Below, one piece after another: positions 4,419 through 60,268 of a stretch of DNA of 64,000 nt. The translations under genes were made by a program, and so were the position numbers. The stretch covers positions 1,656-65,655 of the forward strand of contig JANPGH010000001.1 of assembly GCA_031423795.1 (NCBI GenBank), in the 5' to 3' direction. The notes under the pieces were generated by a model. The model was not told the origin of the DNA. It made no database searches and saw nothing but the letters and a program-made list of their open reading frames with translations. Origin of the DNA: Elusimicrobiota bacterium (GTDB lineage Bacteria; Elusimicrobiota; Elusimicrobia; UBA1565; UBA9628). Positions within the stretch are counted from its first letter, which is position 1, and each line of letters begins with the position of its first letter.

Positions 4419-4429
4419 AGGGGAAATAC

Positions 4430-4705
4430 ATGGGTTTACTCACAATAATGAACGAGAAGGTGGGGGAGCATCGTCCGAAGATCGAGATGGTTGCTGTGTT
4501 GATGCGCATCGTTAGTTTCTCTTTGGTCAGTTGGCTGGGACCCAAAAGCCCGTTCCTGTTCGTCTGGGCGTTCAATACCGCCGACGCGTTGATGTTGTCT
4601 TGGTGTGCGATCATCCGCAAAGACCGGGCATATACCGTGCTTAACGTTTTCTGGATCGCCGTGGGAGTCGTCGGAATGGCACGGGCGGTCGGGTTCGCGA
4701 AGTAA
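4430..4705 (+). CDS. Small 3-TM membrane protein, unknown function
   Basis: 91 aa from the internal ATG. SD AAGGGG lies 7-12 nt upstream. Three hydrophobic segments are present. Confidence 0.5.
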   Translation: MGLLTIMNEKVGEHRPKIEMVAVLMRIVSFSLVSWLGPKSPFLFVWAFNTADALMLSWCAIIRKDRAYTVLNVFWIAVGVVGMARAVGFAK

Positions 4706-4735
4706 CCCGTCGGCGGGGTGTGCGGGTTGCCCACG

Positions 4736-4744
4736 TGATACAAT
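4736..4744 (+). promoter_or_regulatory. Extended -10 TGaTACAAT 7 nt upstream of GTG 4752
   Basis: TGATACAAT at 4736-4744, spacer TTCGTCA, then GTG at 4752 in frame with the PhyH-like ORF. Confidence 0.5.
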
Positions 4745-4751
4745 TTCGTCA

Positions 4752-5615
4752 GTGACTATTTCGAAAGTCCGTTTCAAAAAATCCGATGTAAAACGATTAT
4801 CCCCGAAAACCCTGCGCGCGGTCCGCTCAGGAATGAAACGCGACGGCGCGGTCGTTTTTGAGAACCTGTTTCCGCTCCCGCTTTTGAATCAGTTGCGCCA
4901 GCACGTGACTGCGCGCTTGCGATCCGGCCAGCTGCGCAAGAACGGGATGGTGCGGGATATCGCGGGTCGTTACGCGGCGCTGGTGCCGTTTGAAGGGCCG
5001 TTTTTGAAGCCCGCGTTCTACGCTAACCCGATGCTGCGCGAGATATTAGACGGCTTGCTGGGAGCCGACTGCCGCATTGGAAGCCTGGAAGTCGTCGTGG
5101 CGGTTCCCGGGGCCAACGACCAGCACCAGCACATCGACGGACCGATACGTTTCGACCAGTCCATACGTGGGTCCACACATAGGTACGCGGGCGATCTTGC
5201 GGATTTGCCGCCATACGCGGTGACCCTTTGCGTTCCGCTCTGTGACGTCGACGAAGAAAATGGTCCGACGGCCATATGGCCCGGCTCCCACCGGACCGCG
5301 CTGCGGCCCAGGCCTCCCAGTCTCTCCGAAGTCAACCGCGAATTCCCGGTCGAACATATGGTCGGAAACTTCGGCCGCTCCTTTCTTTTTGATTTCCGAG
5401 TTTTCCACGGCGGTTGCCCCAACCATTCGCGCGAAGAGCGGCCCATTTTGATGTTCGTGTTCACCCGCAGCTGGTACCGGGACCCGAACCTGGCCGATGT
5501 CACGCCGAGCCTCGTCCTCTCTCCTCGCGATTATAAGCGCGTTCCCCAGAGGCTGCGACACCTCTTCATGCTCGCCCCGGCGGCACGTCGCCCGATGTGG
5601 GGGAAGAAACCATGA
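4752..5615 (+). CDS. Phytanoyl-CoA dioxygenase (PhyH)-family Fe(II)/2-oxoglutarate oxygenase
   Basis: About 287 aa. HQHIDGP provides the HxD facial triad and a distal His is present (FHGGCPN). The ATG at 4605 was rejected because it overlaps the upstream gene and lacks the promoter-to-start geometry. Confidence 0.7.
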   Translation: MTISKVRFKKSDVKRLSPKTLRAVRSGMKRDGAVVFENLFPLPLLNQLRQHVTARLRSGQLRKNGMVRDIAGRYAALVPFEGPFLKPAFYANPMLREILDGLLGADCRIGSLEVVVAVPGANDQHQHIDGPIRFDQSIRGSTHRYAGDLADLPPYAVTLCVPLCDVDEENGPTAIWPGSHRTALRPRPPSLSEVNREFPVEHMVGNFGRSFLFDFRVFHGGCPNHSREERPILMFVFTRSWYRDPNLADVTPSLVLSPRDYKRVPQRLRHLFMLAPAARRPMWGKKP

Positions 5616-6142
5616 TTTTGATCCAGGAACTCGTCACCTGTTGGTCGAAGACCGCTCGCTCCGCAAAGAAGGCGACAGCCAGGAATGCGACCCCGAAAAC
5701 CTTTGTCGTCCCCCAGTCGTTGACGCAGATGAGCGCTAAATACGCGGTCTGCTTGCAGGCGGTGCGTTTCTGCGAAGAGAACTCCTTTGAAGCGCGGGAG
5801 GCGAAACCAAAAATCGAGGCATTGACTACCGGCGGGCTCCACCAGTCGGATTGCCTGACCTTGCGCTTGGCCGATACGAATAAAATCGAGATATCCTTCG
5901 TTTGGACGGTCGATTGCGGGGCGCCGCCGCGAAAGAGACGCGTGCTGGGCGCCATAGATTTAGGACAGTGGGCGTGCTTTACGTTCAACGGCCGCGACGG
6001 GATGGCCTCGCTCACCCGGCACGGCGAATGGGCGTATCACCAGACCGTACTCAACGTCGCTTTCGTGGAGAAGGCGCCGTCGGATCTATTCACAGCCTCC
6101 CGCCCAGTTTTCGCGAAGAAAGACCTCGCGGATTTGTGGTGA
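5612..6142 (+). CDS. Hypothetical protein, translationally coupled to the PhyH-like gene
   Basis: 176 aa. ATGA overlap (ATG 5612 / TGA 5613-5615). No recognisable domain. Confidence 0.5.
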   Translation: MILIQELVTCWSKTARSAKKATARNATPKTFVVPQSLTQMSAKYAVCLQAVRFCEENSFEAREAKPKIEALTTGGLHQSDCLTLRLADTNKIEISFVWTVDCGAPPRKRRVLGAIDLGQWACFTFNGRDGMASLTRHGEWAYHQTVLNVAFVEKAPSDLFTASRPVFAKKDLADLW

Positions 6143-6149
6143 GACGCCG

Positions 6150-6815
6150 TTAAGGCGCCGAGCCGGCGTAAAGATCGGCGGGACTAGGGAGGAGGACGAT
6201 GTCTCTCCCCTGCTTCACCGCGACCTCGCGGCTGTTGTCAGCCTCGGCTTGCGCTCTCATTTCGACATACCGAAGGGTCAACAGACTGAACCGTTTGTTT
6301 AACGGGCCGTCTAAGACCTTTTTTTGGTCCACAAGCTGGTTGTTTTGGGAGTTGGCGGACGCGTGCTCGGCGTCGGTCCTAGTTTTGAAATTTATCGCAA
6401 TCGCCGCGCTCGCTACTTTTTGCAAATGCTCGGCGTTCAAGGCCAATTGACGCAGGGCGCCGATATATTCTTTGGCTTCCGCCATATCCAGGACGGCCTT
6501 GCCCAGCTTTGTCTTCGCGGCATAATTGCGGTACGGACATCGAGAATCAGTGGCGTCGATCGGGATAAATACATTTTTCGAAAAACAAATACTTAGCAGG
6601 TATGTCGGTGCCTTCGCGGCCTTGTCCGAGGCATCGATGGGTCTGCTAGCATAATCCGCGATTTCGTCGATCGTAGGGTCGAATTTTAAATTAGCGGTGG
6701 GGTTCGCAGAGCGAGCCTCCTTTTTGTGTGCCGCAGGAGCTCTAGTTGGGTTTTTGGGCGCGGCGTGAAGCGGAAGGGAGATCGCTATCATGATGACCGG
6801 GATCAGGGGGGCCAT
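6150..6815 (-). CDS. Secreted hypothetical protein
   Basis: 221 aa from ATG 6815. Signal peptide MAPLIPVIMIAISLPLHA. A TATACT -10 box (6822-6827, minus strand) lies 6 nt upstream. Confidence 0.55.
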   Translation of the reverse strand: MAPLIPVIMIAISLPLHAAPKNPTRAPAAHKKEARSANPTANLKFDPTIDEIADYASRPIDASDKAAKAPTYLLSICFSKNVFIPIDATDSRCPYRNYAAKTKLGKAVLDMAEAKEYIGALRQLALNAEHLQKVASAAIAINFKTRTDAEHASANSQNNQLVDQKKVLDGPLNKRFSLLTLRYVEMRAQAEADNSREVAVKQGRDIVLLPSPADLYAGSAP

Positions 6816-6910
6816 GCGGGAAGTATAAAGTCCGTCTGGAAAAGCGTCAATAGCCATGCGATTAATTTTAACGACTATTTTGGCCCCCCCCAATAAGGGG
6901 GCCTTAATCC

Positions 6911-7354
6911 TCAAAATAAGTAGCACCTGATTGTTGAGTCATTTGGTACGTTTTTATCGTTTGGATCTGGACGGACAATATAAACGGACCAAAAGCGCGC
7001 ACCTGGCGCAGGGGCTTCCGGTTCTACTTTGATGCCGGTCAACTGACGCTTATCAAGAAAGGACGTTCTCGCGGTGGTATAGATCCAAGCCCCCTTGAGC
7101 GGCGGCGGAACGGTTACTGAATCAGGAGAGTTCAGATCACTGAGATTGGTCCGGAATAAAAAAGTCATTTTGATCGGACCTTGCAGCACCCTCTTCTCGA
7201 GTATCCCATCACTATTCTTCTCACTATTCTTAGTGAGCATCTCATTTACGTCCAAAGTGATAGTGCAAACTTCTTTCGGTGGCTCCGCAAGCGCGGGTCG
7301 ACCGAGAATAGACGCAGTGAACACCAGTAGCAGCGCGGGGTATATTTTGTCCAT
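6911..7354 (-). CDS. Secreted hypothetical protein (lower-GC gene)
   Basis: 147 aa. Signal peptide MDKIYPALLLVFTASILGRPALA. A TACAAT -10 box (7361-7366, minus strand) lies 6 nt upstream. Confidence 0.55.
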   Translation of the reverse strand: MDKIYPALLLVFTASILGRPALAEPPKEVCTITLDVNEMLTKNSEKNSDGILEKRVLQGPIKMTFLFRTNLSDLNSPDSVTVPPPLKGAWIYTTARTSFLDKRQLTGIKVEPEAPAPGARFWSVYIVRPDPNDKNVPNDSTIRCYLF

Positions 7355-7425
7355 ACGCTGATTGTAACTCCACGCCGAAGGGGACGGCGAGGGCCCTAAG
7401 TCCTAGGCGACCAGGGCCAAAGGTA

Positions 7426-8520
7426 TCAGTCCAGCCAGTCCCGGTCCTTGAGCTTCTTGGGTAGGTATTTGTTCGTCAGGTACTGGAAATCCTTGTTGGC
7501 CAGCGCGTCAAGCTCGTACTTGAGGCCGGAGGAAAGCATGCGCTTGATCTCAACCTGCCACTCCTTCTTCTGGAACCAAGGATAATTCAGCAATTCCTTG
7601 GCGCGGCCGATGTCCTTGTCGTTGAGTTTGATGCCGACGTTGCGCGGCAAGTCGTACTGTTCGGGGTCCGCGGAGGACAGGCCGACGAATTTCGCCTCAG
7701 GGATGGCCATGCGCTGGCTTTCGAAGGCGAGGTTGATCGAGCCCTGCTTGACGACCGAGTAGATGTAATAGCCCCAAGGGTCGTTGTCGACCAGTACGTA
7801 GACGGGCAGCTTCTTTTCCTCATGAAGGCGTCGCGCCAGGCGGCGTACGCCGCGCGGAGGCTGGCCGTTTCCGGTCAGCAGTATGCAGTTGTACTTTTTC
7901 CAGAACTTGTCTTCGGCCAGGCGGTTCCACTGCGTCCCTTTCTCGATGAGCAGGATGAAATCGGCGGTGCACTTCTTGATCTGTAGGTATTCCTCTTCCA
8001 CGATCGAAGGCACCGAGTATCCGCCCTTACCCAGCTTCGAGCAGTCCACTTTGTCGCCGTCGTCCTCGAAGATCACGGGCCCGATCACGGTGCCGGCGTT
8101 CTCCGCGCGGACGTGGAACTCCTCGCGCAGCGCGGCCAGGCCGACCTCCAAGTCCTCAATGACCGGGTCAGACTCTGACTGGTCGTCGAAGGTGTTCTCA
8201 TGGCTGTCGCCCATCGTGTGCTTCGTGCGGTAGTAAATTTCGCGCAGGCTGGTGGTCAGGTCGGCCTTTTGCAGCTCGGCCAGCGCGTCGGCGACCAACA
8301 TGGTCTGCATGAACTTCTTGGCCATCGACACATTGAAAAATGTCCGGAGCTGCTTGTTCGACCCCATCTCGATGAAGCCCTTCTTCTCGTTGAACTTAAC
8401 GTTCGAGAGCGAGCGCACGGGAATGGAGATCGAGGGATCTTTCTTCTTTTGCGCGGCGGCGATGACCATATCGGCCAGGCCGATCAGCTTCTTCTCAACA
8501 GCTGGGTTTCGTTTGGGCAT
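7426..8520 (-). CDS. top6A: DNA topoisomerase VI subunit A (Spo11-like)
   Basis: 364 aa. Catalytic-Tyr region SLREIYYRTKH. Toprim motifs LLIEKG and VLVDNDPWGYYI. Confidence 0.9.
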   Translation of the reverse strand: MPKRNPAVEKKLIGLADMVIAAAQKKKDPSISIPVRSLSNVKFNEKKGFIEMGSNKQLRTFFNVSMAKKFMQTMLVADALAELQKADLTTSLREIYYRTKHTMGDSHENTFDDQSESDPVIEDLEVGLAALREEFHVRAENAGTVIGPVIFEDDGDKVDCSKLGKGGYSVPSIVEEEYLQIKKCTADFILLIEKGTQWNRLAEDKFWKKYNCILLTGNGQPPRGVRRLARRLHEEKKLPVYVLVDNDPWGYYIYSVVKQGSINLAFESQRMAIPEAKFVGLSSADPEQYDLPRNVGIKLNDKDIGRAKELLNYPWFQKKEWQVEIKRMLSSGLKYELDALANKDFQYLTNKYLPKKLKDRDWLD

Positions 8521-8523
8521 GGG

Positions 8524-10485
8524 CTATTTTCGCTTCTTTTTGGCTTTCGCCGGCGCTTTCTTTGCAGCCTTGGCTTTCTTCACCGCTTTTGCGGGAGATT
8601 TTGGCGGCATTGCTTTAGCGGCTGGCACCGGAGGAGCGGCTTCGACGGCCGGGGGGGCCTGAAGTGGAAGTACTCCCTCGATGCCCTCGGCGGTCACGAT
8701 AATGGAGTCTGGCAGGCCGTGCGGGCCAGCTTTCTTGTCGAGTAATTCGTCGGTTTTCTGGCCGCCGGTGAGTTTCTTGGCAATCTCGAGAAGCTGGTCG
8801 CGCAGCTTATCCTCGGCGATTTTGCCGCCCTTGAGGCGCTTGCAGGCCCCGACCACTTCCTCAATATAGAGCTCGAAGATGTTCCGGCGCTTGTTCTCGG
8901 ACAGGGCGCGCTCACGGCGCTTGATGAACACGCCCAGACGTCGGCCGGCCTCGCGCAGGCCCAGGGTGATTTCCTTGCGGATCTCGTCGTAATCGGCGAT
9001 GGCTTCCTTGGACTCGCTGGTGAACGGGACCCAGACTGAGGCCATATGGATGAAAATCGCCATCGGGCCATGCGGCGGCGCGCCGCGAGACTGCGTAACG
9101 CCGTAATTTTTCCAGGTTGTTTCGAGAACGGCCTTGAAGGTTGCGCAGGCCGACTGTTGATACAAGAGGGGGACGCGGTTGGCGTAGCGGATTACGCGCG
9201 CCATCTCGTCGTCGCCTTCGTCGTGGCTTTCGCCTTCGGCTAGAGGGGTTTTGGGGGCGGCGGTGGCCGCGGCGGCGAGCGCTTCCGGGCTGCGTCCGTA
9301 AGCCAATCCGACTTCGATCACGAACGGATTGCCGCGGTACACGGCCGGCGGACGGGTGACGGCGGTGTAAAACTCGCCCTTGATCTGCTTGTATAGTCCC
9401 GCCAGTATCGCCTTCTCGCCGATCGGTGATAGGCAATTCGTTGGCGGGGCCATCAGTTTCGTTTCTTGAATGGTTTTGTAGAGGGCTTCGGCCTCGTTGC
9501 CCATCACGTCGCGCGGACGCATGTGGGGTTTAAGTTCCGCGGCCTTGCAAATCTCCTCGGCGGTTTCCGTAGACACGCGCGAGAAGTCGCCGGACAAGAA
9601 GCCGGACAGCCAATGGCTTTTGGTGTCCTGCAGCATTTTGAGAAGCATGCCCAGCTCAATGCCGTAGGGGTGAGGCTTAATCTCTTTCGGCGGTTCGGGC
9701 AGCTCGTGCAGCGCGCGCGCGAATACCTTGACCTCGCCGTCGGGGGCGTGGTAGGTGAATTGCGCGTGCGGATTGGAGATCGAGGTCAGCTCCATGTATT
9801 CGTCGACCGAGGCGCGACCCTTCTGGTATTTACCTTCGAGCTCGATGGTCACCTGGGTGCCGCGATGACGCTCCCACTCGATCTGCTTCTTCTCGAGGAT
9901 GATCGGCTCGTTCTTTTTGGTGTCGATCTGGACTTCGAAATAATGGGCGGGGGACTTCTCGCCGGTGCGCGAGATGATCTTGACCGGCTTGCCGGTAGTC
10001 AGCTGGCCGTACATGCCGGCGGCCGAAATGCCGATGCCCTGCTGTCCGCGGCTCATGCGCAGCCGGTGGAACTTCGAGCCGTACAGGAGTTTGGCGAACA
10101 CGCGCGGGATCTGGTCGCGCACGATACCGGGCCCATGGTCGATCACAGTCACGCGAAAGCGCGTCGCTTGCGAGACGGCCGGGACCGGAGCGTCGCCGAT
10201 GCCGGCGGCCTCGAGCTTGACGACGATATCGGGAAGGTGGCCGGCTTCCTCGGAGGCGTCAAGCGCGTTGTCGACGGCTTCCTTGACGGCGGTGAGTAAC
10301 GCCTTGCGTGGATTGTCAAAACCGAGCAGGTGGCGGTTCTTGGTAAAGAACTCGGAGACGGAGATCTCCCGCTGCTGTTTGCCCATCTCATCTGCGGATT
10401 TCCCCACCGCAGGCGTTTTGGCTTTCGGTTCCTTGTCTTTCATGGCGCGAGGGGCCATCTTAGCAAACGACCGGCGATTTCGCAC
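8524..10485 (-). CDS. top6B: DNA topoisomerase VI subunit B (GHKL ATPase) with a Lys/Ala/Pro-rich basic C-terminal tail
   Basis: GHKL boxes EAVDNALDA, DHGPGI and GQQGIGISAA. The stop lies 3 nt before the top6A start. The start is uncertain (GTG 10485, ATG 10458 or ATG 10443). Confidence 0.9.
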   Translation of the reverse strand: MRNRRSFAKMAPRAMKDKEPKAKTPAVGKSADEMGKQQREISVSEFFTKNRHLLGFDNPRKALLTAVKEAVDNALDASEEAGHLPDIVVKLEAAGIGDAPVPAVSQATRFRVTVIDHGPGIVRDQIPRVFAKLLYGSKFHRLRMSRGQQGIGISAAGMYGQLTTGKPVKIISRTGEKSPAHYFEVQIDTKKNEPIILEKKQIEWERHRGTQVTIELEGKYQKGRASVDEYMELTSISNPHAQFTYHAPDGEVKVFARALHELPEPPKEIKPHPYGIELGMLLKMLQDTKSHWLSGFLSGDFSRVSTETAEEICKAAELKPHMRPRDVMGNEAEALYKTIQETKLMAPPTNCLSPIGEKAILAGLYKQIKGEFYTAVTRPPAVYRGNPFVIEVGLAYGRSPEALAAAATAAPKTPLAEGESHDEGDDEMARVIRYANRVPLLYQQSACATFKAVLETTWKNYGVTQSRGAPPHGPMAIFIHMASVWVPFTSESKEAIADYDEIRKEITLGLREAGRRLGVFIKRRERALSENKRRNIFELYIEEVVGACKRLKGGKIAEDKLRDQLLEIAKKLTGGQKTDELLDKKAGPHGLPDSIIVTAEGIEGVLPLQAPPAVEAAPPVPAAKAMPPKSPAKAVKKAKAAKKAPAKAKKKRK

Positions 10486-10497
10486 ATCGGCCGATGG

Positions 10498-12192
10498 TCA
10501 TTGCCCGAATATCCGGATTTTGGTGCGCGGGTCGATTGCCGCCTGCGAGACGTCGGCGTGGGGATCCACGTCGAGGATCTGCGCGGAAATGGATCCGCGC
10601 AGGCGCGAAGGACCGGCGACGATGACTTGCTGGAGAGAACGGACATGGATTGTCGAGGTCAGGTCGAGGACGACGATTGGTCCCGCGGAGAAGATCTCGC
10701 CGGAGTTGGAGTAGCCAGGCCCGAGAACCACGATGGTGAGCGGATTGTCGTTGATATAACGGCGTCCATCGCCGTCGAGAGGTTTGCCGTTGAGTACGAC
10801 GAACCGGACGTCCGAGACGCGTGGCAACCGGCGTTGGGAGAGGAGCTCGGCCAATCGCGCGCCGATGAGCGGCCGGTTCCGGGATATTTGGCTGAGCGGG
10901 AAACCGCGCGTCATGTTGCCCAAGAAAATAAGCGGAGGGGATTTCACGTCGATCCCGTAAAAAGTCATGCCGGAGGCGCCCGGATTCACGATCGACGGCG
11001 CAGCGAAGAATCGAAGGGTGTGGCCTTGGGTCGTGAATACGTCCCCGGAAGAGCTCGCGCGCGACGTCACGACGCGTCCGGTGATATAGACGAAGCCCTG
11101 CTTGTCGCGATGTGGCGTGTAGATGAAGGAAGCGGGGCCGGATTTTTCTGACGGCGCGACATCGAGACGTTGCTCTTTGCCGAGCGGCAACTCGCGGCGG
11201 GTGTTCGGCACGCGAAAATCTATTTTTTGGCCGGCGAATTGAACGCGAAGCAACGTCGATCCTAGCGCCGCAGGGATCGAAACCATCTGGATCTGCCCGC
11301 TGAGCGTCTGGGCGAACGCGCCGAGGCTGGAGACGTTCCAGAATTCGTCGTTATACAATCCGCTCCAATGCTTCGCGAATAATCCGGCCACGGGTTTGGC
11401 CGTCGCCGAATGGCGGGGCGGCGTGAGGCTCCCGGCGAGGGACTCCATTCCAGAAAACCAACTGGGCACGTCGCCTGCGTATTGCGGGGCAGGGGCCACG
11501 GGAAGAGGCGTGACATCATATTTGTAACGGCCTCTGGTACGAGATGGTCGGACCACTTCAACGATCGTCGAATCCCGAGGGCCGTTATTTGTCGCAGTAA
11601 GCGCTGCAGCGATCTCGCCGGCTTTAGATACCTGAGCCGCTTGAACCGCAGCGTGCAAGGATGCGAATGTGTTCGAGACCCGCTCCCCGTAGATTAGGTA
11701 AGGCGCGAGACCTTCGAGTTCCGCCCGCAATTGCGCAGAGCTGATCCGGCCTTGTTCAAAATCCTGCCTTAGCTGCAGGTTGCGGTCTTGGACGGCCTCC
11801 TCGACTCGATATCGTGCGCTCGCAAAAGCTTCTTGAAAGACGCTCTCGATATCTTTCAAGATGAATCGGCCGCCGGGCGAATTTCTTACGGATTGAGCGA
11901 GGTCGATTTTCGTCGCAAAATCATCGGGCAAATGGGCGGCTACGACGCCTAAAGCCGAGAGGAAGCCGGGCGAGATCGCGGAGAGGTCGACGTCCGCAAA
12001 CTTGGATAAATGGCCGAGCTGGGACTTCTGGGAGACCAATGGTGCGACTGCGGCGAGGGCCGTGAACATTTCCGGACTCATCGCGCGGGTTTCGACCCAC
12101 GAAGTTCGCCTCTGACCGGGGATGGGAGCCGCATCGGCGCGGCAGGCGAGCGCGAAGAAAAGACCCACGAAGGCCGTCGAGAAAAAACGCAT
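10498..12192 (-). CDS. Secreted hypothetical protein
   Basis: 564 aa from ATG 12192. Signal peptide MRFFSTAFVGLFFALACRADA. A TATACT -10 box (12199-12204, minus strand) lies 6 nt upstream. The gene ends 12 nt before top6B. Confidence 0.6.
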   Translation of the reverse strand: MRFFSTAFVGLFFALACRADAAPIPGQRRTSWVETRAMSPEMFTALAAVAPLVSQKSQLGHLSKFADVDLSAISPGFLSALGVVAAHLPDDFATKIDLAQSVRNSPGGRFILKDIESVFQEAFASARYRVEEAVQDRNLQLRQDFEQGRISSAQLRAELEGLAPYLIYGERVSNTFASLHAAVQAAQVSKAGEIAAALTATNNGPRDSTIVEVVRPSRTRGRYKYDVTPLPVAPAPQYAGDVPSWFSGMESLAGSLTPPRHSATAKPVAGLFAKHWSGLYNDEFWNVSSLGAFAQTLSGQIQMVSIPAALGSTLLRVQFAGQKIDFRVPNTRRELPLGKEQRLDVAPSEKSGPASFIYTPHRDKQGFVYITGRVVTSRASSSGDVFTTQGHTLRFFAAPSIVNPGASGMTFYGIDVKSPPLIFLGNMTRGFPLSQISRNRPLIGARLAELLSQRRLPRVSDVRFVVLNGKPLDGDGRRYINDNPLTIVVLGPGYSNSGEIFSAGPIVVLDLTSTIHVRSLQQVIVAGPSRLRGSISAQILDVDPHADVSQAAIDPRTKIRIFGQ

Positions 12193-12272
12193 CGAAGGAG
12201 TATAGACGCCTTTCAAGCGGAGGCGATAGGGTCGTCAGGCCTGTTTTGCGCAGGCCGGAGGACCTAGGGCGG

Positions 12273-13115
12273 TTAGCTTAGATCGAGGCCGAAGTCGAGG
12301 GCGGGGGCGCTGTGGGTGAGGCGGCCGACGGAAATCCGGTCGGGATCCAATCGAACAATCGCGCGGAGATTATTCAGGGTGATGCCGCCAGAAACTTCGA
12401 TCTTGACGCGGGGGGCTTGGCGGCGAAGCCGCGGAATCTCGCGGCTCAGGCGGGCTGGGGACATATTGTCAAGAAGGATCACGTCTGGCTTGAGTGAAAG
12501 CGCACGTGTGGTTTGGACGGATGTGTCGCATTCAATGATAAGCGGTACTCGGGGAAAGCGGCGGCGCAACTCGTCGACGCCCGCGGCGAGCCGGCCGCCC
12601 ATGTAGTGGTTGTCTTTGACCATCACCGCGTCGTAAAGGCCCATTCGATGATTCATTCCTCCGCCGCAGCTGACCGCGTATTTCTCCAGGGTTCGCCAAC
12701 CTGGCAGCGTCTTGCGTGTGTCGAGGATGCGCGCGCGCGTTCCGCGCGCGGCGTCAACGTACTTTCGCGTCAGCGTGGCGACTCCCGAGAGGTGCTGAAT
12801 GAAATTGAGCGCGGTGCGTTCAGCGGTCAGCAGTCCGCGACCACCCGCGATGGTCATGACCGTTTGACCCGGCCGGACTTTGGCGCCGTCCCGCGTGAGA
12901 ACGCGTACTCGGGCTGCTGGCGCGCAGGCTTTAAACGCAGCGGCGGCGATGTCGAGCCCGCAAACGACGCCCGCCTCGCGGCTGACGACTCGCGCACGGA
13001 AGCGGGCGGATTGCGGGACGAAGAGCCGCGTCGTTAAATCACCGTGCGTACCGAGGTCCTCGCGCAAGGCGGCGCTCAGCAAAGGCTTCCACGCGGCGCA
13101 GGGGAGCTTCTTCAC
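12273..13115 (-). CDS. nadC: Nicotinate-nucleotide pyrophosphorylase (quinolinate phosphoribosyltransferase)
   Basis: 280 aa. Motifs LREDLGTHGDLTT, TRKTLPGWR, CGGGMNHRMGLYDAVMVKDNH. Confidence 0.9.
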   Translation of the reverse strand: MKKLPCAAWKPLLSAALREDLGTHGDLTTRLFVPQSARFRARVVSREAGVVCGLDIAAAAFKACAPAARVRVLTRDGAKVRPGQTVMTIAGGRGLLTAERTALNFIQHLSGVATLTRKYVDAARGTRARILDTRKTLPGWRTLEKYAVSCGGGMNHRMGLYDAVMVKDNHYMGGRLAAGVDELRRRFPRVPLIIECDTSVQTTRALSLKPDVILLDNMSPARLSREIPRLRRQAPRVKIEVSGGITLNNLRAIVRLDPDRISVGRLTHSAPALDFGLDLS

Positions 13116-16599: not shown

Positions 16600-18624
16600 T
16601 CACCTCGATACTGAACGGCGTTTTCGCGGAGAAGATTTCGCGCGTGAGGCGGACATCGACTTGAGCTCGAACAGCTGGTCGCGCAGCAACACCGCGGCCT
16701 CAAAATCGAGCGCGTCGGCTGCCGCCTTCATCCGACCTTCGACCTCGGCGACGATGCCGGGCAAATCCTTGGCCGACATCGGCTTCTCCGCATCGCGCAG
16801 CAGCATCAGCCCTTCACGCTTGGCCGTGGAATGGAACTCTTCGAGATCCTCGACCGCCTTGATGATGGTCTTCGGGGTGATTTTGTGGGCGACGTTGTAA
16901 GCGACCTGCTTCTGGCGGCGCCGGTCCATTTCATCCAAAGCGCGCTTCATCGAGCCGGTCACGGTGTCGGCATATAAGATCACCTGGCCGCCGACGTTGC
17001 GCGCCGCGCGTCCCGAGATCTGGATCAGCGTCGTTTCCGATCGAAGAAATCCCTCGTGGTCGGCACCGAGAATGGCCACCAGTGATACCTCGGGAAGGTC
17101 GAGGCCCTCACGCAGTAAGTTAATGCCGACCAACACGTCGAAGACGCCAGCGCGCAAATCCTGCAGGATCTGTATGCGTTCCAAGCTGTCGATGTCGGAA
17201 TGCAGGTAGCGGGCACGCACGTCCTTGGTCAGAAGCCAGGACGTCAAGTCCTCGGCCGTGCGCTTGGTGAGAGTCGTGACCAGCACACGTTCCTTCTTTT
17301 TCGCGCGATCGCGTATTCGAACCAATAAATCGTCGAGTTGTCCTTCGCTTGGCTTGATAATGGTCTCTGGGTCGATGAGACCGGTCGGACGCACGACCAT
17401 TTCGACGATTTCACCCTGCGTCTTTTTTAGTTCGTAGGGTCCCGGTGTGGCCGACACGAATACTGTCTGTCCGGCCAGCGCCTCAAATTCGGAGAATTTG
17501 AGTGGCCGGTTGTCGAGCGCAGAGGGCAAACGCCACCCGAAGTCGACCAAGGTCTGCTTGCGCGCGCGGTCGCCCTGGTACATGCCGCCGATCTGAGGGA
17601 CCCCGACGTGGCTTTCGTCGACGACGAGCAGGTAATCCTTCGGAAAAAAATCGATCAGGCAATTCGGGCGGTCGCCGGGAGCGCGGCCCGAAAGGGGGCG
17701 CGAGTAGTTCTCGATACCGTGGCAGAATCCGATTTCGCGCAGCATTTCCAAATCATAATGGGTCCGCTGTTCGATGCGCTGCGCCTCGAGCAATTTGCCC
17801 TGGGATGAGAAATAGGCGATTCGCTCCTTCAGCTCATCCTCGATGACGGTGATCGCGCGTTCGCGCTCGGGTCCGCCCGTCACGAAGTGCTTGGCGGGAT
17901 ACACCCATTCCCGCTGCAGGTCCTTAATTTTCTTTCCCGTCAACGGATCGAATTCGATCAGGGATTTCACGACCCCGTCTTCCAGGGTCGCGCGCAACGC
18001 GACCTCCATGTAAGCGGGGAAGACGTCCACCACACCGCCCTTCATGCGGAATTTTCCCCGCACGAATTCCATCTCATTGCGCTCGTAATGGATTGCGACA
18101 AGGCGCTCGGCAAACTCATCCCGGGTGACCTTCCAACCGACCTCAAGCGGGATCGCCCTTTTTTCATATTGGTCGGGAGAGCCGATGTTGTAGATACACG
18201 ATACCGACGCCACCACGATTACGTCTCGCCGCGACATCAGCGAACTCGTTGCCTTGAGTCGCAGGCGGTCAATCCGGTCGTTAATCGAGGAGTCTTTTTC
18301 GATAAACGTGTCCGTGGACGGCACATAGGCTTCGGGCTGGTAGTAGTCGTAGTAGGAGATGAAAAATTCCACGGCGTTGTCCGGGAAAAAGGCCTTGAAC
18401 TCGGCGTAAAGCTGAGCGGCGAGAACCTTGTTGGGGGACATCACAAGTGTTGGCCGATCGAGATTCTTGATCACGTTGGCGATCGCGAATGTCTTTCCGG
18501 ACCCGGTCACTCCCAACAGGGTTTGTGCCGGCGCGCCTTCCCGAATTCGGGAAATGAGCGATGCGATCGCCTCAGGCTGGTCGCCGGCGGGCTTAAAAGA
18601 TGAACGCAGGCGAAACAGGCTCAT
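16600..18624 (-). CDS. uvrB: Excinuclease ABC subunit B
   Basis: 674 aa. Walker A GVTGSGKT, helicase motifs and a C-terminal UVR domain (FEAAVLLRDQL). Confidence 0.95.
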   Translation of the reverse strand: MSLFRLRSSFKPAGDQPEAIASLISRIREGAPAQTLLGVTGSGKTFAIANVIKNLDRPTLVMSPNKVLAAQLYAEFKAFFPDNAVEFFISYYDYYQPEAYVPSTDTFIEKDSSINDRIDRLRLKATSSLMSRRDVIVVASVSCIYNIGSPDQYEKRAIPLEVGWKVTRDEFAERLVAIHYERNEMEFVRGKFRMKGGVVDVFPAYMEVALRATLEDGVVKSLIEFDPLTGKKIKDLQREWVYPAKHFVTGGPERERAITVIEDELKERIAYFSSQGKLLEAQRIEQRTHYDLEMLREIGFCHGIENYSRPLSGRAPGDRPNCLIDFFPKDYLLVVDESHVGVPQIGGMYQGDRARKQTLVDFGWRLPSALDNRPLKFSEFEALAGQTVFVSATPGPYELKKTQGEIVEMVVRPTGLIDPETIIKPSEGQLDDLLVRIRDRAKKKERVLVTTLTKRTAEDLTSWLLTKDVRARYLHSDIDSLERIQILQDLRAGVFDVLVGINLLREGLDLPEVSLVAILGADHEGFLRSETTLIQISGRAARNVGGQVILYADTVTGSMKRALDEMDRRRQKQVAYNVAHKITPKTIIKAVEDLEEFHSTAKREGLMLLRDAEKPMSAKDLPGIVAEVEGRMKAAADALDFEAAVLLRDQLFELKSMSASRAKSSPRKRRSVSR

Positions 18625-21492: not shown

Positions 21493-23121
21493 GTGCGAAC
21501 CGCGTGGATAGCCGGTCCTCTCCTGCTTTGTTTGGCGTTGTCGTCTTTTTTCGGGATCGGGTTAATCAGGTCGGCTTCGCCGACATATGATGAGCCGGTT
21601 CATTTGGCCGCAGGCTACACCGACTTGGTCCAGGGGCGCTACCGGCTCAACGCGATGGACCATCCGCCGTTGGGGGAGATGTGGGCGGCCCTGCCACTGT
21701 TGGGTATGTCGCTCGACCGCTTTGCCGCCCATCCTGCCTGGATTGACGCCGCGGTGTACCATTATGGGGACCTTTTCCTCTATCATAACCGAATTTCATC
21801 CGACGTCCTTTTAGCCGCGTCAAGGTCGTGGTCGCTGCTCACGTGGACCTTGCTCGTGGCGTGGTTCCTGATGGTCTGGTCGGCGCGGCTCGAAGGTCCG
21901 CCCGGAGCCTGGGGCGCGGCGGTAGCACTCGGGTGTTGCGTGCCCTGGTTTTCGAACGCGGCATTGATCACGACCGACGCGCCTTCGGCGGCTTTATTTT
22001 TTGCCGCGTGCGCCTTGTTCGCGATTCCAGGAAGGTCTCGGCGTACCTATATGCTCGGAGGGACGATCGTCGGGGCGGCGTTGGCGGCGAAGTTCAACAT
22101 GATCTTGCTGCCTCCGCTAATCGTATTTTCGCTCATCGTCGATCCGCGCGCGGAGGACGCGCGGCGCAATCGATGGCCGCGCATCGCGCTGGCCGTCGCG
22201 GTCGCCGTCGTCGCGCTCGCGGCGGCCTATCGTTTCGCTTATTTCGACTTGTATTTCCGCGGGCTGTCCGCGACGTTGTCGCGGCTGGCACAAGGCCGCG
22301 GCGCATATTTGCTCGGAAACCATTCGACGACCGGGTGGCTTTGGTATTATCCGGCGGCGGTGCTGGTGAAAACGCCGTTGGCGCTTCTCTTGCTGTCGGG
22401 CTGGGGATTGTGGAAGGCGGTCCGTCAGCCGCGCGGCGAAGCGGCCTGGCTGCTGATTCCGCCGTTGGGGTATGCCGCCGTCGCCTTGTTTTCGAAAACG
22501 CAGATCGGCTACCGCCATGTGCTTCCGATTTATCCGTTTATTTGCCTGTGGGCGGGTTTGGGCGTGGCCGACTTGTGGCGGCGCGCAAACCCCGGACGGG
22601 CGCTGGCATGCGCCATGGGCGTTTGGGCGGCGGTTTCCGTCGCAATGAACCACCCGCAGCATTTGTCCTACTTCAATGAAATCGCCCGCGGCCGGAGCGA
22701 ACAGTGGCTGTCCGATTCGAATTTGGACTGGGGACAAGATCTCCCCACCTTGGCGCGAGAGCTCGCGGCTCGGGGAAATCCTCCCTTCGTGCTTTGCTAC
22801 TTTGGAAGCGGTGATCCGGCCGCATACGGGTTGCGCTATGTTCCCTTGGGGATCTTGGCGACCGTGACAAGGAGCGGAAACGCGGTTCTCGAGAGAGGCG
22901 CACCGGTGCTGTTTGCCGTGTCCGAGACCAACTTGGTCGGAACCTATATGCGGGACCCGGCCGTGTTCGATTGGCTTAGGAGCCGAACGCCGGCGGCGAT
23001 TCCGGGCGGTTCCATCTGGCTTTATGACCTGACGCAGGACCGAGAAGGCCGTGCCCGCTTGGCGGCGATGTTGGCCTCCCTCGGCCGGCTCGGCGACGCG
23101 GACGTGGTCGGGAGATTCTAA
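21493..23121 (+). CDS. GT39/ArnT-like (GT-C fold) membrane glycosyltransferase
   Basis: 542 aa and multi-TM. The N-terminal YDEPVHLAAGY...MDHPPLGEMW is typical of PMT_2/GT39 proteins. GTG start 8 nt after TATAAT (21479-21484). Confidence 0.7.
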   Translation: MRTAWIAGPLLLCLALSSFFGIGLIRSASPTYDEPVHLAAGYTDLVQGRYRLNAMDHPPLGEMWAALPLLGMSLDRFAAHPAWIDAAVYHYGDLFLYHNRISSDVLLAASRSWSLLTWTLLVAWFLMVWSARLEGPPGAWGAAVALGCCVPWFSNAALITTDAPSAALFFAACALFAIPGRSRRTYMLGGTIVGAALAAKFNMILLPPLIVFSLIVDPRAEDARRNRWPRIALAVAVAVVALAAAYRFAYFDLYFRGLSATLSRLAQGRGAYLLGNHSTTGWLWYYPAAVLVKTPLALLLLSGWGLWKAVRQPRGEAAWLLIPPLGYAAVALFSKTQIGYRHVLPIYPFICLWAGLGVADLWRRANPGRALACAMGVWAAVSVAMNHPQHLSYFNEIARGRSEQWLSDSNLDWGQDLPTLARELAARGNPPFVLCYFGSGDPAAYGLRYVPLGILATVTRSGNAVLERGAPVLFAVSETNLVGTYMRDPAVFDWLRSRTPAAIPGGSIWLYDLTQDREGRARLAAMLASLGRLGDADVVGRF

Positions 23122-23125
23122 GCGC

Positions 23126-26100
23126 ATGTCCTTGGGCGACAGGGCGCGTCGTTGGCGCGCGCAGCGACGCCGGACGATTCTTTTCGAGTCTTTTGCCTCC
23201 TCGGTGGGTTTAGCCACTTGCTGGTTCGTCGCGGTGGCGTTGCTCGACCGCTGGGCAGCGCTTGCCAAGCCCGCGCGAATCGGGGCATTTGCAGCGGGTA
23301 TAATCGGATGCGGCTGGCTGTTGGTCGTTCGACTGTGGCGTCCGTGGCGAGCGCTGACTTGGGACGATATTTTCAATGCCTCGTCAGCACGGTGGCCAGA
23401 GTCTCGGCCGTATTTTTCTTCTGCGTGGGCGCTGCGCGCTAAGCCGTCCATCACCGGAACGTCCGAGGCGTTAAGGCAAGAGCATCTGGCCCGCGCCGAC
23501 CGCGTGGCCGCCGAACAGACCGAAAAGATCTTGTTCAAGTGGTCGCCATCATCCGGCGTGCGGCGCTTGGCAATCGTCGCGGTCACGTTGTTGGCGGCGC
23601 AGTCGATATTCGGAGACAGGTCCTCTTGGTCGCGCGCGGTCGCCCCCTGGCGAGATGCGGCATTGGACGAGTACGTGGCGGTGGAACCTGGAGATGCGCG
23701 GATCGATTGGGGCGCGGGGGCGACGGTGTTCGCCCGCTTAAAGGCGGGAGCACGGGAGCACGGATTGACACCGGGGAGCTTGGTTTTGGAATCGCGCACG
23801 CGCGACGAGCGATGGCAGCCGCTCGGATGGACTCGCTTCGATCGGGAATCGGCGGAGCGGCGGTTCGATTCAGTATCGGCCGACATCGATTATCGAATGC
23901 GATGGCGGGATTTGGTCGGCCGGTCCTACCGCTTGGAACCCGTGCCGCCGCCGCGGTGGGCGAAGGCGACGGCCGTCGTCAAAGACGTGAGGGGCGAGCG
24001 TCGATTCGAACTGGGAAAAGAGGCAATTATTAATGCCCGAAAGGGCGATTGGATAGCGATCGAAGCGCAATCCGATCAACGCTTGGCCTCCGCCACGCTT
24101 CGAATTCCTGAACATACCGCGGGTATAACGATGAATCGCGAGGTCGGGCAGTGGCGCGGCGGCTTTCTTGCCCAATCGGAAGGTGTCCTTTCGTTCGAAT
24201 TGGTCGGTGTCGACGGCCGCCGCGACCCGTCGCCGCCGACTTACACATTGTCCATCACCATCGATGCGCCGCCGACGGCCGAACTTCTTTCTCCGCAAGT
24301 GGCGCTGGTCGCCTCACTGCAGGAGGTAATCCCGGTGACGTACGCGTTGCGCGACGATTCCGCGGTGAGCCGCGCGGCGCTGATTTTCACGGTCGATGCA
24401 AAAGCGGAGGTAGCACTCCCGTTGCCGGTCCCGGCTGCGGCTCGCACCGACGTGGTCGCGGATTTCTCTTGGGCATTGACGACTCAATCCCCGGGCTCGC
24501 ACGTCGAATTTTGGATTGAGGTTTGGGACGACGCCGTGCCGGCACAGCGGGGCGTTTCCGAAAAAGGGACGATCGAGATCGTCAACGCCGCCGCCGACCA
24601 CGCGGCGGCCCTCTCGGCACGAGAAGCAGCCGATGCCAACGTGGAGAAGGCCGCCGCGGCGGCTGAAGCGGCCCGAGATGCCGCTCGCCGTGGCGATCTC
24701 GCGGCGTCGCGCAAGCTTACCGAAGAATTGCGCGCCCAGTGGAAGCAGGCGAGTGCCGCTCTAAAGGAGTGGGGGGATCGATCCTCGGCCGATTCGCGCG
24801 GCGATCCCGGAATCGCGCAAGAGGCTCAGCGCTCCGCTGAAGAATTTGAACAAGCGGGGCAGGACGGCCTTCCCGCCGCCGAGAACGCGTTAGCGAAAGC
24901 TGATTCCGCCGCGGCCGCGCGTGAGCAGGACGCGCTCGCCCAGCAAGCGCGCGGGGTCCAGAAGTCCATGCGGGAGGGCGCGGGCGTTCAAGCGCTGCAG
25001 GATCACTCCCGGGCGATGAGCCAGGCCGGCCAAACGAGCGAAGGCTTGGCCGCACAGGCGGAGGCCCTGGCCGCGCGCGGCCGCGAGGGGACGGTCACGG
25101 GGGCGGAGCTCGAAAAACTCGAAGCCGCGCTTTCCGAGATCGAGGGTCAGCTCGAGTCGCTGCGCCGCGCCGTCAAGGCGATGCCGGAAATTTCTGCCGA
25201 GGAAGCCGAAGGAGGGACGCGCGAGCTTCCTTTGGAAGACGCCCGGCAATCCGCCGCAGAGCTTCGCCACGCGCTGCAATCCGGAGATGTGAAGGCCGCC
25301 GCCAGCGCCGCGCGCAAACTCGCCGAACGTTTAAAGACGCTGGCCAAAACCCTGGACTCGGTGGGTCAGCGCGCCGCCCAGCAGCACGGACGCCATTCGT
25401 CCGAGGCCGCCTCTCGCGTGCGTCGCGCGTGGCAGGACGCTGTCGACGCGCAGACGACAGCCGTCGAAGCGGCGCGCAAAATCGAAGAGGACCGATTGGC
25501 GGAGTTGCTGGCGCGGCAACGCGAGATGTTGAAAACCGAAGCCGCCGGATTCTCGGCTGCAGCCGCGGCCGCGGGTGTCCAGTCTTCGGAATTTTCGTCC
25601 CCGTTCGCGGAGATCGCCAGGAGTCTGGCTGTCGGCGACGCGGCCGGTGCGGCCAATGTCATGCGTGGGGTTTCTGCGGCGCTGAAGCGCGACGCCGCGA
25701 CGGCCAAGGGACTTTCTCCCGCTGCGCGCGCCTTGGCCGCGGATCTGCAAGCACGTGCCGCGCGCCTCGAGAGCGGACCCTCCGCTCCTGGCGCGGATTC
25801 CGCGCGCTCCGCCGCCGCGGCTGGGGACCAACGAGCGGCCCTGGCGAAGACGCAATCTTTGCGCGCGGAAGTGTCTGGCGCGGCTAAGGACGGATATTTA
25901 TCTGGGCGGGTGGCCTCTCTAGTGGACCAAGCGATCGCCGAACAGGGAGCGGGCGAGGCGGCGCTGACTAGGGGAGATTCCGGAGAGGGATTGAAACGCG
26001 CCGAAGCGGCTCTCGCGATTCTGCAGTCCGGCGACTCGACGTCGTCCGGCGCCGAAAGTGCTGCGGGCGGCGCGCAAAAGTCGATGGGCGCCGGATCTTC

Positions 26101-26302
26101 CCCCGGCGGGACGATGACGATGCGCGCTGGCGGCTCGCGAGGCCGGTCCGGCCTGCGCTTCGAACACGTACGCCTGCCTTCGGCCAACGATTACCAGCCG
26201 CCGCGCGAATTACGCGAAGAACTGCAGAAGTCCTTACATGAATCGCGACCAGCCGCATTTGATCCAGCTATAAAAGAGTACTTCAAACGGCTTTCTCGGT
26301 GA
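23126..26302 (+). CDS. Large Ala-rich membrane-anchored protein, DUF4175-like
   Basis: About 1058 aa. Two N-terminal TMs, a beta-rich middle region and a long Ala/Glu/Arg coiled-coil C-half ending in IKEYFKRLSR. Confidence 0.55.
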   Translation: MSLGDRARRWRAQRRRTILFESFASSVGLATCWFVAVALLDRWAALAKPARIGAFAAGIIGCGWLLVVRLWRPWRALTWDDIFNASSARWPESRPYFSSAWALRAKPSITGTSEALRQEHLARADRVAAEQTEKILFKWSPSSGVRRLAIVAVTLLAAQSIFGDRSSWSRAVAPWRDAALDEYVAVEPGDARIDWGAGATVFARLKAGAREHGLTPGSLVLESRTRDERWQPLGWTRFDRESAERRFDSVSADIDYRMRWRDLVGRSYRLEPVPPPRWAKATAVVKDVRGERRFELGKEAIINARKGDWIAIEAQSDQRLASATLRIPEHTAGITMNREVGQWRGGFLAQSEGVLSFELVGVDGRRDPSPPTYTLSITIDAPPTAELLSPQVALVASLQEVIPVTYALRDDSAVSRAALIFTVDAKAEVALPLPVPAAARTDVVADFSWALTTQSPGSHVEFWIEVWDDAVPAQRGVSEKGTIEIVNAAADHAAALSAREAADANVEKAAAAAEAARDAARRGDLAASRKLTEELRAQWKQASAALKEWGDRSSADSRGDPGIAQEAQRSAEEFEQAGQDGLPAAENALAKADSAAAAREQDALAQQARGVQKSMREGAGVQALQDHSRAMSQAGQTSEGLAAQAEALAARGREGTVTGAELEKLEAALSEIEGQLESLRRAVKAMPEISAEEAEGGTRELPLEDARQSAAELRHALQSGDVKAAASAARKLAERLKTLAKTLDSVGQRAAQQHGRHSSEAASRVRRAWQDAVDAQTTAVEAARKIEEDRLAELLARQREMLKTEAAGFSAAAAAAGVQSSEFSSPFAEIARSLAVGDAAGAANVMRGVSAALKRDAATAKGLSPAARALAADLQARAARLESGPSAPGADSARSAAAAGDQRAALAKTQSLRAEVSGAAKDGYLSGRVASLVDQAIAEQGAGEAALTRGDSGEGLKRAEAALAILQSGDSTSSGAESAAGGAQKSMGAGSSPGGTMTMRAGGSRGRSGLRFEHVRLPSANDYQPPRELREELQKSLHESRPAAFDPAIKEYFKRLSR

Positions 26303-27785: not shown

Positions 27786-27923
27786 AGAGTCAGTAGCCTC
27801 CGTTTGTTGGATAGGCTCCCGGGCAACTGGGAGCAACCCACGATATAACGCAGGCTACTGGCTCGTCTATTTAATCTAAAGGCGGAATCACGGATTTGAC
27901 GCCGTCGTCGCTCGAAATCCCTC

Positions 27924-49395: not shown

Positions 49396-49461
49396 CATTC
49401 TCTTAATCCTCCTGAAACGTACGTAGTGTATAATCCGGTTCGCACAAAAAATGACAACAAC

Positions 49462-56406: not shown

Positions 56407-56419
56407 GAGTCACCCAACC

Positions 56420-60267: not shown

Positions 60268-60268
60268 T

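Follow-up and report, generated by a model that had tools for sequence, protein, structure and literature searches.

Does a topoisomerase VI (topo VI), an enzyme of the archaeal type, really belong to the chromosome of an Elusimicrobiota bacterium, and if so, how unusual is it there and what would it do? The question is raised by a 64,000-nucleotide (nt) stretch of the 66.8-kb contig JANPGH010000001.1 (assembly GCA_031423795.1, positions 1,656 to 65,655), hereafter the window, whose own numbering is used throughout. Two adjacent genes in it, top6B and top6A, had been read from the sequence as an operon for both subunits of the enzyme. We find that, taken as a whole, the evidence is best explained by a type IIB DNA topoisomerase that is native to this bacterium and, judging from the predicted proteins, very probably functional. 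The gene pair is real but ordinary, being of a known kind already widely annotated in Elusimicrobiota and Nitrospira. The features of the locus are collected in Table 1.

Table 1. Features of the predicted topoisomerase VI locus and the adjoining upstream gene (window coordinates; aa, amino acids)
Feature	Coordinates	Strand	Details
top6A, predicted DNA-cleaving subunit of topo VI (winged-helix/CAP and Toprim)	7426..8520	-	ATG start, 364 aa
top6B, predicted ATPase subunit of topo VI (GHKL, H2TH, transducer)	8524..10485	-	Longest open reading frame, GTG start, 653 aa
Top6A active-site motif LREIYYRTK	8221..8247	-	Aligned to 1d3y_A; EIYYRTK, aa 94-100, 8221-8241
Top6A Toprim metal-binding residues	7771..7947	-	E193 in IEKG (aa 192-195, 7936-7947); D245 and D247 in DNDPWG (aa 245-250, 7771-7788)
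Top6B Bergerat-fold ATP-binding motifs	9853..10284	-	From alignments to 2q2e_B and 2zbk_B. N-box KEAVDNALDA with E69 and N73 (aa 68-77, 10255-10284); G1 DHGPGI (aa 116-121, 10123-10140); G2 SRGQQGIGISAA with GQQGIG (aa 145-156, 10018-10053); G3 HRGTQ (aa 207-211, 9853-9867)
Top6B KGR loop	9808..9825	-	Conserved relative to the archaeal structures
Top6B transducer elements	8998..9114	-	K492 in SESKEAI (aa 490-496, 8998-9018); WKNY stalk motif (9103-9114)
Top6B low-complexity Ala/acidic loop in the transducer, about 29 aa	9205..9291	-	aa 399-427; gap in both PDB alignments (query 399-425)
Top6B C-terminal tail	8527..8673	-	aa 605-653; Pro/Ala linker, then a Lys-rich run
Upstream open reading frame, predicted secreted	10498..12216	-	572 aa from TTG, or 564 aa from ATG 12192; signal-like hydrophobic N-terminus

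Two intact subunits of a type IIB topoisomerase

Top6A scored 580 bits against the NCBIfam equivalog model NF003333 (cutoff 465), aligned over profile positions 10-367 of 367, and fell under the cutoffs of five other Top6A sub-models, which indicates that it belongs to one specific subfamily. Its Pfam matches are TOP6A-Spo11_Toprim (PF21180; 3.7e-61, profile positions 1-170 of 170), TP6A_N (PF04406; 3.3e-16) and Topo_VI_alpha (3.4e-8). Top6B exceeded two equivalog cutoffs, with 670.6 bits for NF003218 (cutoff 274) and 512 bits for TIGR01052 (cutoff 380.7), and matched Topo-VIb_trans (PF09239; 1.4e-54) and HATPase_c (3.2e-9). Over both subunits, the Pfam E-values range from 3e-8 to 4e-61.

Among solved structures, the best match to Top6A is that of Saccharolobus (Sulfolobus) shibatae (2zbk_A; E = 2.7e-78, 266 bits, residues 24-363), followed by M. 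jannaschii 1d3y_A (E = 6.4e-57) and M. mazei 2q2e_A (E = 3.3e-56, 194 bits). R93 and Y97 align with R99 and the catalytic Y103 of M. jannaschii (1D3Y numbering; Nichols et al. 1999), and also with the equivalent residues in 2ZBK and 2Q2E. E193, D245 and D247 align with the glutamate and the DxD motif in all three archaeal Top6A structures.

Top6B aligns contiguously with M. mazei 2q2e_B over chain residues 6-363 and 368-479 (E = 2.9e-146, 492 bits), and with S. shibatae 2zbk_B at E = 2e-85 and 291 bits. K492, the gamma-phosphate-sensing lysine, aligns with the lysine of the S. shibatae GKE motif (K427), and WKNY aligns with WKQY of M. mazei. The M. mazei alignment spans the H2TH region as well; KPHPYGIELG lies within query residues 270-320, and the separate Pfam model for this region found no match. 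This region sets true Top6B apart from the topo VIB-like partners of Spo11 (Allen & Maxwell 2024, PMC11302465).

The original prediction had described both subunits as intact, with the motifs EIYYRTK, IEKG and DNDPWG in Top6A and the GHKL N, G1 and G2 boxes in Top6B. Indeed, both open reading frames (ORFs) are full length, pass equivalog cutoffs and align nearly end to end with solved structures; every catalytic residue is in place, and the G3 box and the transducer lysine could be located in addition to the motifs first listed.

The two genes are translationally coupled and, as predicted, lie 3 nt apart, the junction reading ...AAA TAG CCC ATG.... In most of the related loci, the gap from top6B to top6A measures -4 to +14 nt, and the complete genome of Candidatus (Ca.) Nitrospira inopinata has the same arrangement with a 4-nt overlap. 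DNA similarity between the relatives and the window stays within the borders of the operon, 7425 to about 10457. Promoter and terminator scans of 5900-12500 returned counts no higher than those of shuffled controls. Several Elusimicrobiota metagenome-assembled genomes (MAGs) depart from the compact layout: the top6B-top6A spacers are 257 nt in L016 and 62 nt in L010, about 2 kb with two reverse-strand genes separates the pair in L005 (7931-9921), and top6A is absent from the 8 kb downstream of top6B in L002 (5116-12981).

The GTG at 10485 opens the longest reading frame for top6B. The Top6B proteins of relatives start some 14-26 residues ahead of a conserved GK(S/T)ADEMG motif, and the called start of the orthologue in locus L031 aligns at about window position 10443. 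Based on these relatives, the true start is probably ATG 10443 (MKDKEPK..., 639 aa) or ATG 10458 (644 aa). A clear Shine-Dalgarno sequence is missing for most of the window genes checked, including all top6 start candidates, so this criterion is unhelpful in choosing among them.

A bacterial host

Because top6 genes could have been transferred, we used UvrB, encoded at 16600..18624, as an independent marker of the host. Its best 120 matches have 74-90% identity, and all of those that carry a taxon name are from Elusimicrobia or Elusimicrobiota. Also present in the window are genes for Omp85, aspartokinase, NadC, TrpRS, glycogen synthase (GlgA), ScpA/ScpB and TsaD, one for an S41 protease, and a Tad-type pilus cluster that includes a secretin. 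In a comparison of 20 genes, the codon usage closest to that of the host is found in the two top6 genes (top6A: G+C at third codon positions (GC3) 0.84, codon adaptation index (CAI) 0.81; top6B: GC3 0.77, CAI 0.76). A separate, independent assembly made from this freshwater-sediment sample matches the window at 100% identity over 4426-10293 and joins top6BA to the downstream bacterial flank. The host is an Elusimicrobiota bacterium, and top6BA is native to it and lies on the bacterial chromosome. Family models, solved-structure alignments, catalytic residues, host markers and codon usage thus all agree with the top6B-top6A operon as first described.

Distribution and annotation

A search with Top6A found 7962 proteins at E<=1e-20, and nearly all of the best 120 share 81-91% identity with it over essentially the full length. 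The named proteins among these 120 come mostly from MAGs of Elusimicrobia or Elusimicrobiota, on contigs of up to 278 kb, and also from Nitrospira at 81-82% identity; the latter include the 3.3-Mb genome of Ca. Nitrospira inopinata and a 4.1-Mb Nitrospiraceae record. Species-representative genomes carry at least 25 such loci; among the 25 confirmed, 22 are named Elusimicrobia or Elusimicrobiota, two are labelled 'bacterium' only and one is from Rokubacteria. The view that topo VI is only sporadic in bacteria understates its frequency in environmental Elusimicrobiota and Nitrospirota, given the best 120 matches at about 81% identity or more and the 25 or more genomes.

A recent survey reported topo VI in 17 bacterial families, Nitrospiraceae among them, and mentions Elusimicrobia in neither its text nor its supplement (Allen & Maxwell 2024, PMC11302465). 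Our literature search turned up no paper on topo VI in Elusimicrobiota as such. In the databases, the NCBI pipeline names matches to NF003333 'DNA topoisomerase IV subunit A', a label that is incorrect, the protein being topo VI subunit A.

Phylogeny and probable transfer

To place the window protein, we searched 50%-identity representatives exhaustively with HMMER, which gave 2927 relatives. The nearest labelled full-length representatives outside the protein's own clade are all from DPANN archaea, at 45-50% identity: Woesearchaeota (47%), Ca. Rehaiarchaeum/Parvarchaeota (45%), and Aenigmarchaeota and Diapherotrites (49-50%, with intein-sized insertions). Further off are Hydrothermarchaeales (36%) and Nitrososphaeraceae (34%). 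The insertions, which bring several of these DPANN proteins to 833-923 aa, are lacking in the bacterial ones. In P0129-P0131, P0136 and P0139, all from Aenigmarchaeota or Diapherotrites, the query was matched in two separated stretches, as expected for inteins. Four still longer proteins (P0174, P0213, P0263 and P0268; 950-1061 aa) carry the whole Top6A match at the C-terminus and could be B-A fusions.

In a neighbour-joining tree of 353 columns with 100 bootstrap replicates and mostly unlabelled metagenomic outgroups, the window protein falls in a tight bacterial clade (100/100). Its position near DPANN agrees with the second bacterial cluster of Allen & Maxwell, who found one bacterial topo VI cluster close to these archaea (PMC11302465). 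Within the clade, the Nitrospira proteins are monophyletic (100/100), whereas monophyly of Elusimicrobia to the exclusion of Nitrospira is recovered in just 8/100 replicates.

The host marker behaves differently. Nitrospira is missing among the best 120 UvrB matches, the lowest of which have 74% identity, whereas for Top6A the Nitrospira counterpart reaches 81%. This contrast, together with the Top6A tree, suggests that the operon has passed from one bacterial phylum to another, for which we consider the sequence support moderate. It also bears on the suggestion that topo VI is notable for lineage placement. With Nitrospira falling among Elusimicrobia in the Top6A tree, the gene is a poor marker, and we caution against using it in this way.

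The topo VI of Nitrospira (N. moscoviensis in PMC11302465; Ca. N. inopinata, LN885086.1) is among the closest known systems. Its Top6A is 81-82% identical and shares the clade with 100% bootstrap support, and gene order, tight coupling, the Top6B domain set and the acidic loop of the transducer are all alike. The differences lie in the host phylum, in the neighbouring genes and in the Top6B tail, which is short and contains arginine in Ca. N. inopinata and is Lys-rich here.

Predicted role and alternative explanations

If the enzyme works as its archaeal relatives do, two Top6A and two Top6B subunits would form an A2B2 heterotetramer. ATP bound at the GHKL sites (E69, N73, G1-G3) would dimerise the B subunits and capture one duplex, and the signal would reach Top6A through the transducer helix, in which K492 would sense the gamma-phosphate. 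A second duplex would then be cut, with a 2-nt 5' stagger, by Tyr97 of each A subunit together with Mg2+ bound by E193/D245/D247, and the captured duplex would pass through before the break is resealed. As a net result, supercoils would be relaxed and catenated chromosomes unlinked. The likely cellular job resembles that of bacterial topo IV (ParC/ParE), namely ATP-dependent decatenation and relaxation, although topo IV is a type IIA enzyme with a GyrA/ParC-type cleavage core, a 4-nt stagger and an architecture unrelated to topo VI. For the M. mazei topo VI, complementation of an E. coli strain temperature-sensitive in parE or parC is mentioned in the literature as unpublished work (PMC11302465).

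Every topo VI family in the published survey has gyrase as well, and topo IV is absent from those that fall outside Pseudomonadota and Terrabacteria (Allen & Maxwell 2024, PMC11302465). Given this published pattern, the physiological role in our host would be that of a decatenase and relaxase working beside DNA gyrase and replacing topo IV. Within the 64 kb, no type IIA domain of gyrase or topo IV was found in the ORFs longer than 600 aa or in the other ORFs scanned. As to origin, bacteria probably acquired the pair from archaea at an early date, its nearest relatives being DPANN-like, and it later moved between Elusimicrobiota, Nitrospirota and Rokubacteria.

We think it unlikely that the enzyme, while a true topo VI, is an auxiliary third type II topoisomerase, specialised or redundant beside both gyrase and topo IV. 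The disrupted or split operons of L005 and L002 count in favour of such a role, as they hint at dispensability. On the other hand, genomes with all three enzymes occur only in Pseudomonadota and Terrabacteria in the published survey (PMC11302465), and the high codon adaptation together with 81-91% conservation suggests a heavily used gene.

The predicted secreted ORF upstream of top6B suggests a further alternative, in which it forms a functional three-gene unit with top6B and top6A and its product works with topo VI or regulates it. The ORF stops 12 nt before GTG 10485, as had been noted along with the remark that the pairing is odd. With a start at 10443 or 10458, the likely gap is instead 54 or 39 nt. 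All three genes are on the same strand, the spacing is short at 12-54 nt, and no terminator-like site lies between the ORF and top6B. The protein itself, whose codon usage is host-like (GC3 0.69, in-frame CAI 0.655), has no Pfam match even at E<=10, no match in NCBIfam or PADLOC, and no homologue among 5.8 billion proteins save its own record; an AlphaFold2 model of the 564-aa form made without an alignment was uninformative (mean predicted local distance difference test score 36.6, predicted template modelling score 0.24). Nor is the pairing kept elsewhere. The ORF is missing from all 25 species-representative loci and from the further loci, and in the 28 other distinct loci examined it never adjoins top6BA. 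When eleven window proteins were searched against the 25 loci with tblastn, Top6A and Top6B alone were found, and all-against-all clustering of the ORFs of the 28 loci yielded nothing common but the two top6 genes and shadow ORFs. Gene tables were also compared for six more places, on Elusimicrobiota and Nitrospira contigs, and the neighbours of top6BA were different each time. Moreover, DNA homology to relatives stops at the start of top6B, and a protein with a signal peptide would be expected in another compartment than a nucleoid enzyme. A functional three-gene unit is thus very improbable, and the ORF is most likely a lineage-specific orphan that neighbours top6BA by accident; read-through transcription from it into top6BA is possible.

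It is still less probable, and in our view barely credible, that the pair has no housekeeping role and is instead a Spo11-like break-maker, a topo VIII-like enzyme of a plasmid or provirus, or a Toprim-nuclease defence system such as Wadjet JetD. Top6A, Spo11, topo VIII and JetD do have a Toprim/winged-helix core in common, and the window holds two transposase genes, at 26.7 and 31.3 kb. Yet no mobile-element gene lies within 16 kb of the operon, no PADLOC defence model was matched at E<=0.01 by any of the region's five proteins, and both subunits score above topo VI equivalog cutoffs. Top6B, in addition, keeps the ATP boxes, the H2TH region and the transducer lysine that are lacking in the topo VIB-like partners of Spo11 (PMC11302465), and the two subunits are separate polypeptides rather than the B-A fusion of topo VIII. 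Two named candidates were considered and set aside: topo VIII/Mini-A, on the separate ORFs with their stop codon and 3-nt spacer and on the chromosomal context, and bacterial topo IV (ParC/ParE, type IIA), as Pfam gives type IIB domains only for both proteins.

Finally, the chance that the segment is archaeal DNA misassembled or misbinned into a bacterial contig is negligible, as the original prediction had expected from the flanking Omp85, uvrB and secretin genes: topo VI is typical of archaea and the nearest relatives outside the clade are DPANN, but identity to these is only 45-50% against 81-91% to proteins on long Elusimicrobiota contigs, similar copies sit in Mb-scale Nitrospira records, and the named UvrB matches, the bacterial genes on both sides, the codon usage and the junction repeated in the second assembly all speak for the bacterium.

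A functional topo VI native to the Elusimicrobiota host therefore remains the best explanation, and several points count against it. Activity, expression and complex formation are predictions, and it is by extrapolation that this genome is taken to have gyrase and to lack topo IV. Among sequencing runs, a single DNA run from a freshwater sediment metagenome contains the sequence, and no RNA run from the sample was found. The tree is a neighbour-joining tree on 353 columns with mostly unlabelled outgroups and gives no firm order for the deep branches. The ranking of structures also differs by subunit: for Top6A, S. shibatae (266 bits) precedes M. mazei (194 bits), and for Top6B, M. mazei (492 bits) precedes S. 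shibatae (291 bits). This may reflect unequal evolutionary rates or different gene histories.

A basic tail on Top6B

The operon can be compared with two archaeal enzymes of known structure. M. mazei topo VI (PDB 2Q2E and later entries) is like it in the GHKL, H2TH and transducer regions, the KGR loop, the WKxY motif, and the catalytic Tyr, Arg, Glu and DxD residues. However, the Top6B alignment ends at M. mazei chain residue 479, so that the immunoglobulin (Ig)-like C-terminal domain of that protein has no counterpart here; the Elusimicrobiota protein instead has a disordered-looking Lys-rich tail, and its transducer has an additional loop of about 29 aa. S. shibatae topo VI (2ZBK), the best structural match for Top6A, resembles our protein in having a Top6B without the Ig-like domain; it differs in a far more distant Top6B, in the lack of a basic tail and in its host, a crenarchaeon without gyrase. 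The Ala/acidic loop is missing from both archaeal Top6B proteins and has equivalents in the Nitrospira and L029 orthologues; like the tail, it recurs throughout the Elusimicrobiota-centred clade without a conserved sequence.

The tail, which sits in place of the M. mazei Ig-like C-terminal domain, starts after SIIVTAEGIEG and contains 13 lysines, one arginine and one acidic residue in 49 positions. A basic tail of 34-89 aa follows SIIVT.EG.EG in 24 of the 25 relatives from species-representative genomes, its composition being kept and its sequence not. Several relatives carry a Lys/Ala/Pro-rich extension at the N-terminus of Top6B too. Bacterial Top6B is reported to lack the Ig-like C-terminal domain, and neither the tails nor the acidic loop are mentioned in the 2024 survey (PMC11302465). 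The Lys/Ala/Pro-rich basic tail is the sole mildly new feature of the locus, a small one that had gone undescribed.

By its composition, and by analogy with the lysine-repeat tails of actinobacterial topoisomerase I, the tail probably adds non-specific DNA affinity. A more speculative proposal, which we put forward tentatively as less than an even chance, is that the tail and the clade-specific acidic loop are adaptations of bacterial topo VI. The tail would be a histone-H1-like DNA tether, replacing the Ig-like domain found in the Top6B of gyrase-bearing archaea or the accessory proteins of the plant enzyme, and the whole cassette would have moved recently between Elusimicrobiota, Nitrospirota and Rokubacteria. 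In either case the function of the tail is read from amino acid composition, and two relatives fit it poorly: Ca. N. inopinata has a shorter tail with arginine and without lysine, and the Top6B of L013 has no tail. The lysine-repeat tails of actinobacterial topoisomerase I raise the capture of DNA crossings or processivity, and the Top6B tail, if the proposal is true, might provide a similar boost.

Neighbouring genes and other content of the window

Downstream of top6A, 6150-7354 on the reverse strand holds two ORFs of 147 aa (with a signal-like N-terminus) and 258 aa, with unusually low G+C contents of 0.49 and 0.53 and weak codon adaptation. Nothing meaningful was found for either in Pfam (E<=10), NCBIfam or PADLOC, and the gene caller of the other assembly skipped the first and began the second at 6815 (221 aa). 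Gene clusters combining an 'IHF histone', an IHF-like protein and a topo VI-like gene have been described in Omnitrophota, Wallbacteria, CG03 and Elusimicrobiota (Schwab et al. 2024, PMC11390915). No such neighbours were seen in the window or in the related loci examined, and the gene tables of the loci with precomputed Pfam annotation contain no histone-fold or IHF-like (HU/IHF-family) domain.

Elsewhere in the window, ScpA and ScpB, the partners of the SMC condensin, are encoded at 34953-36516 (+); they also serve chromosome segregation and, at 25 kb from top6BA, are unlinked to the operon. The two transposases are an IS110-family enzyme (26676-27836, -) and a DDE enzyme (DUF772/DDE_Tnp_1; 31326-32645, -), and between them lie genes for a CpXC protein, a protein with a poly(A) polymerase/CCA-adding head domain and a GT87-like protein. 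Large ORFs without a Pfam domain occur at 23051-26302 (1083 aa), at 21493-23886 (overlapping candidates) and at 47551-49395 (614 aa). An 1164-aa protein (49426-52920) combines FlgD Ig-like repeats with a CHU_C C-terminal domain of type IX secretion. The Tad/Flp-type pilus cluster (54905-62538, +) comprises RcpC/CpaB, a short secretin (249 aa), two T2SSF-family proteins, a TPR protein and a 775-aa ATPase in which a CpaF-like protein is fused to a ParA/MinD-like N-terminal domain.

Implications

The role of topo VI beside gyrase in bacteria is an acknowledged open question (PMC11302465), and our literature search found no paper with a biochemical characterisation of any bacterial topo VI. Standard annotation picks up the genes automatically, although the misleading topo IV label could produce spurious hits in name-based screens of genomes for ParC. 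The locus adds the phylum Elusimicrobiota, which does not appear in the 2024 survey, itself based on cultured or complete genomes. In this phylum the gene pair occurs commonly; it is well adapted to its host and seems to have been exchanged with Nitrospira, and the overall picture of bacterial topo VI is unchanged by it. Its practical value is modest: the operon could serve as a clean expression candidate, and the basic tail that it naturally carries lends itself to deletion.

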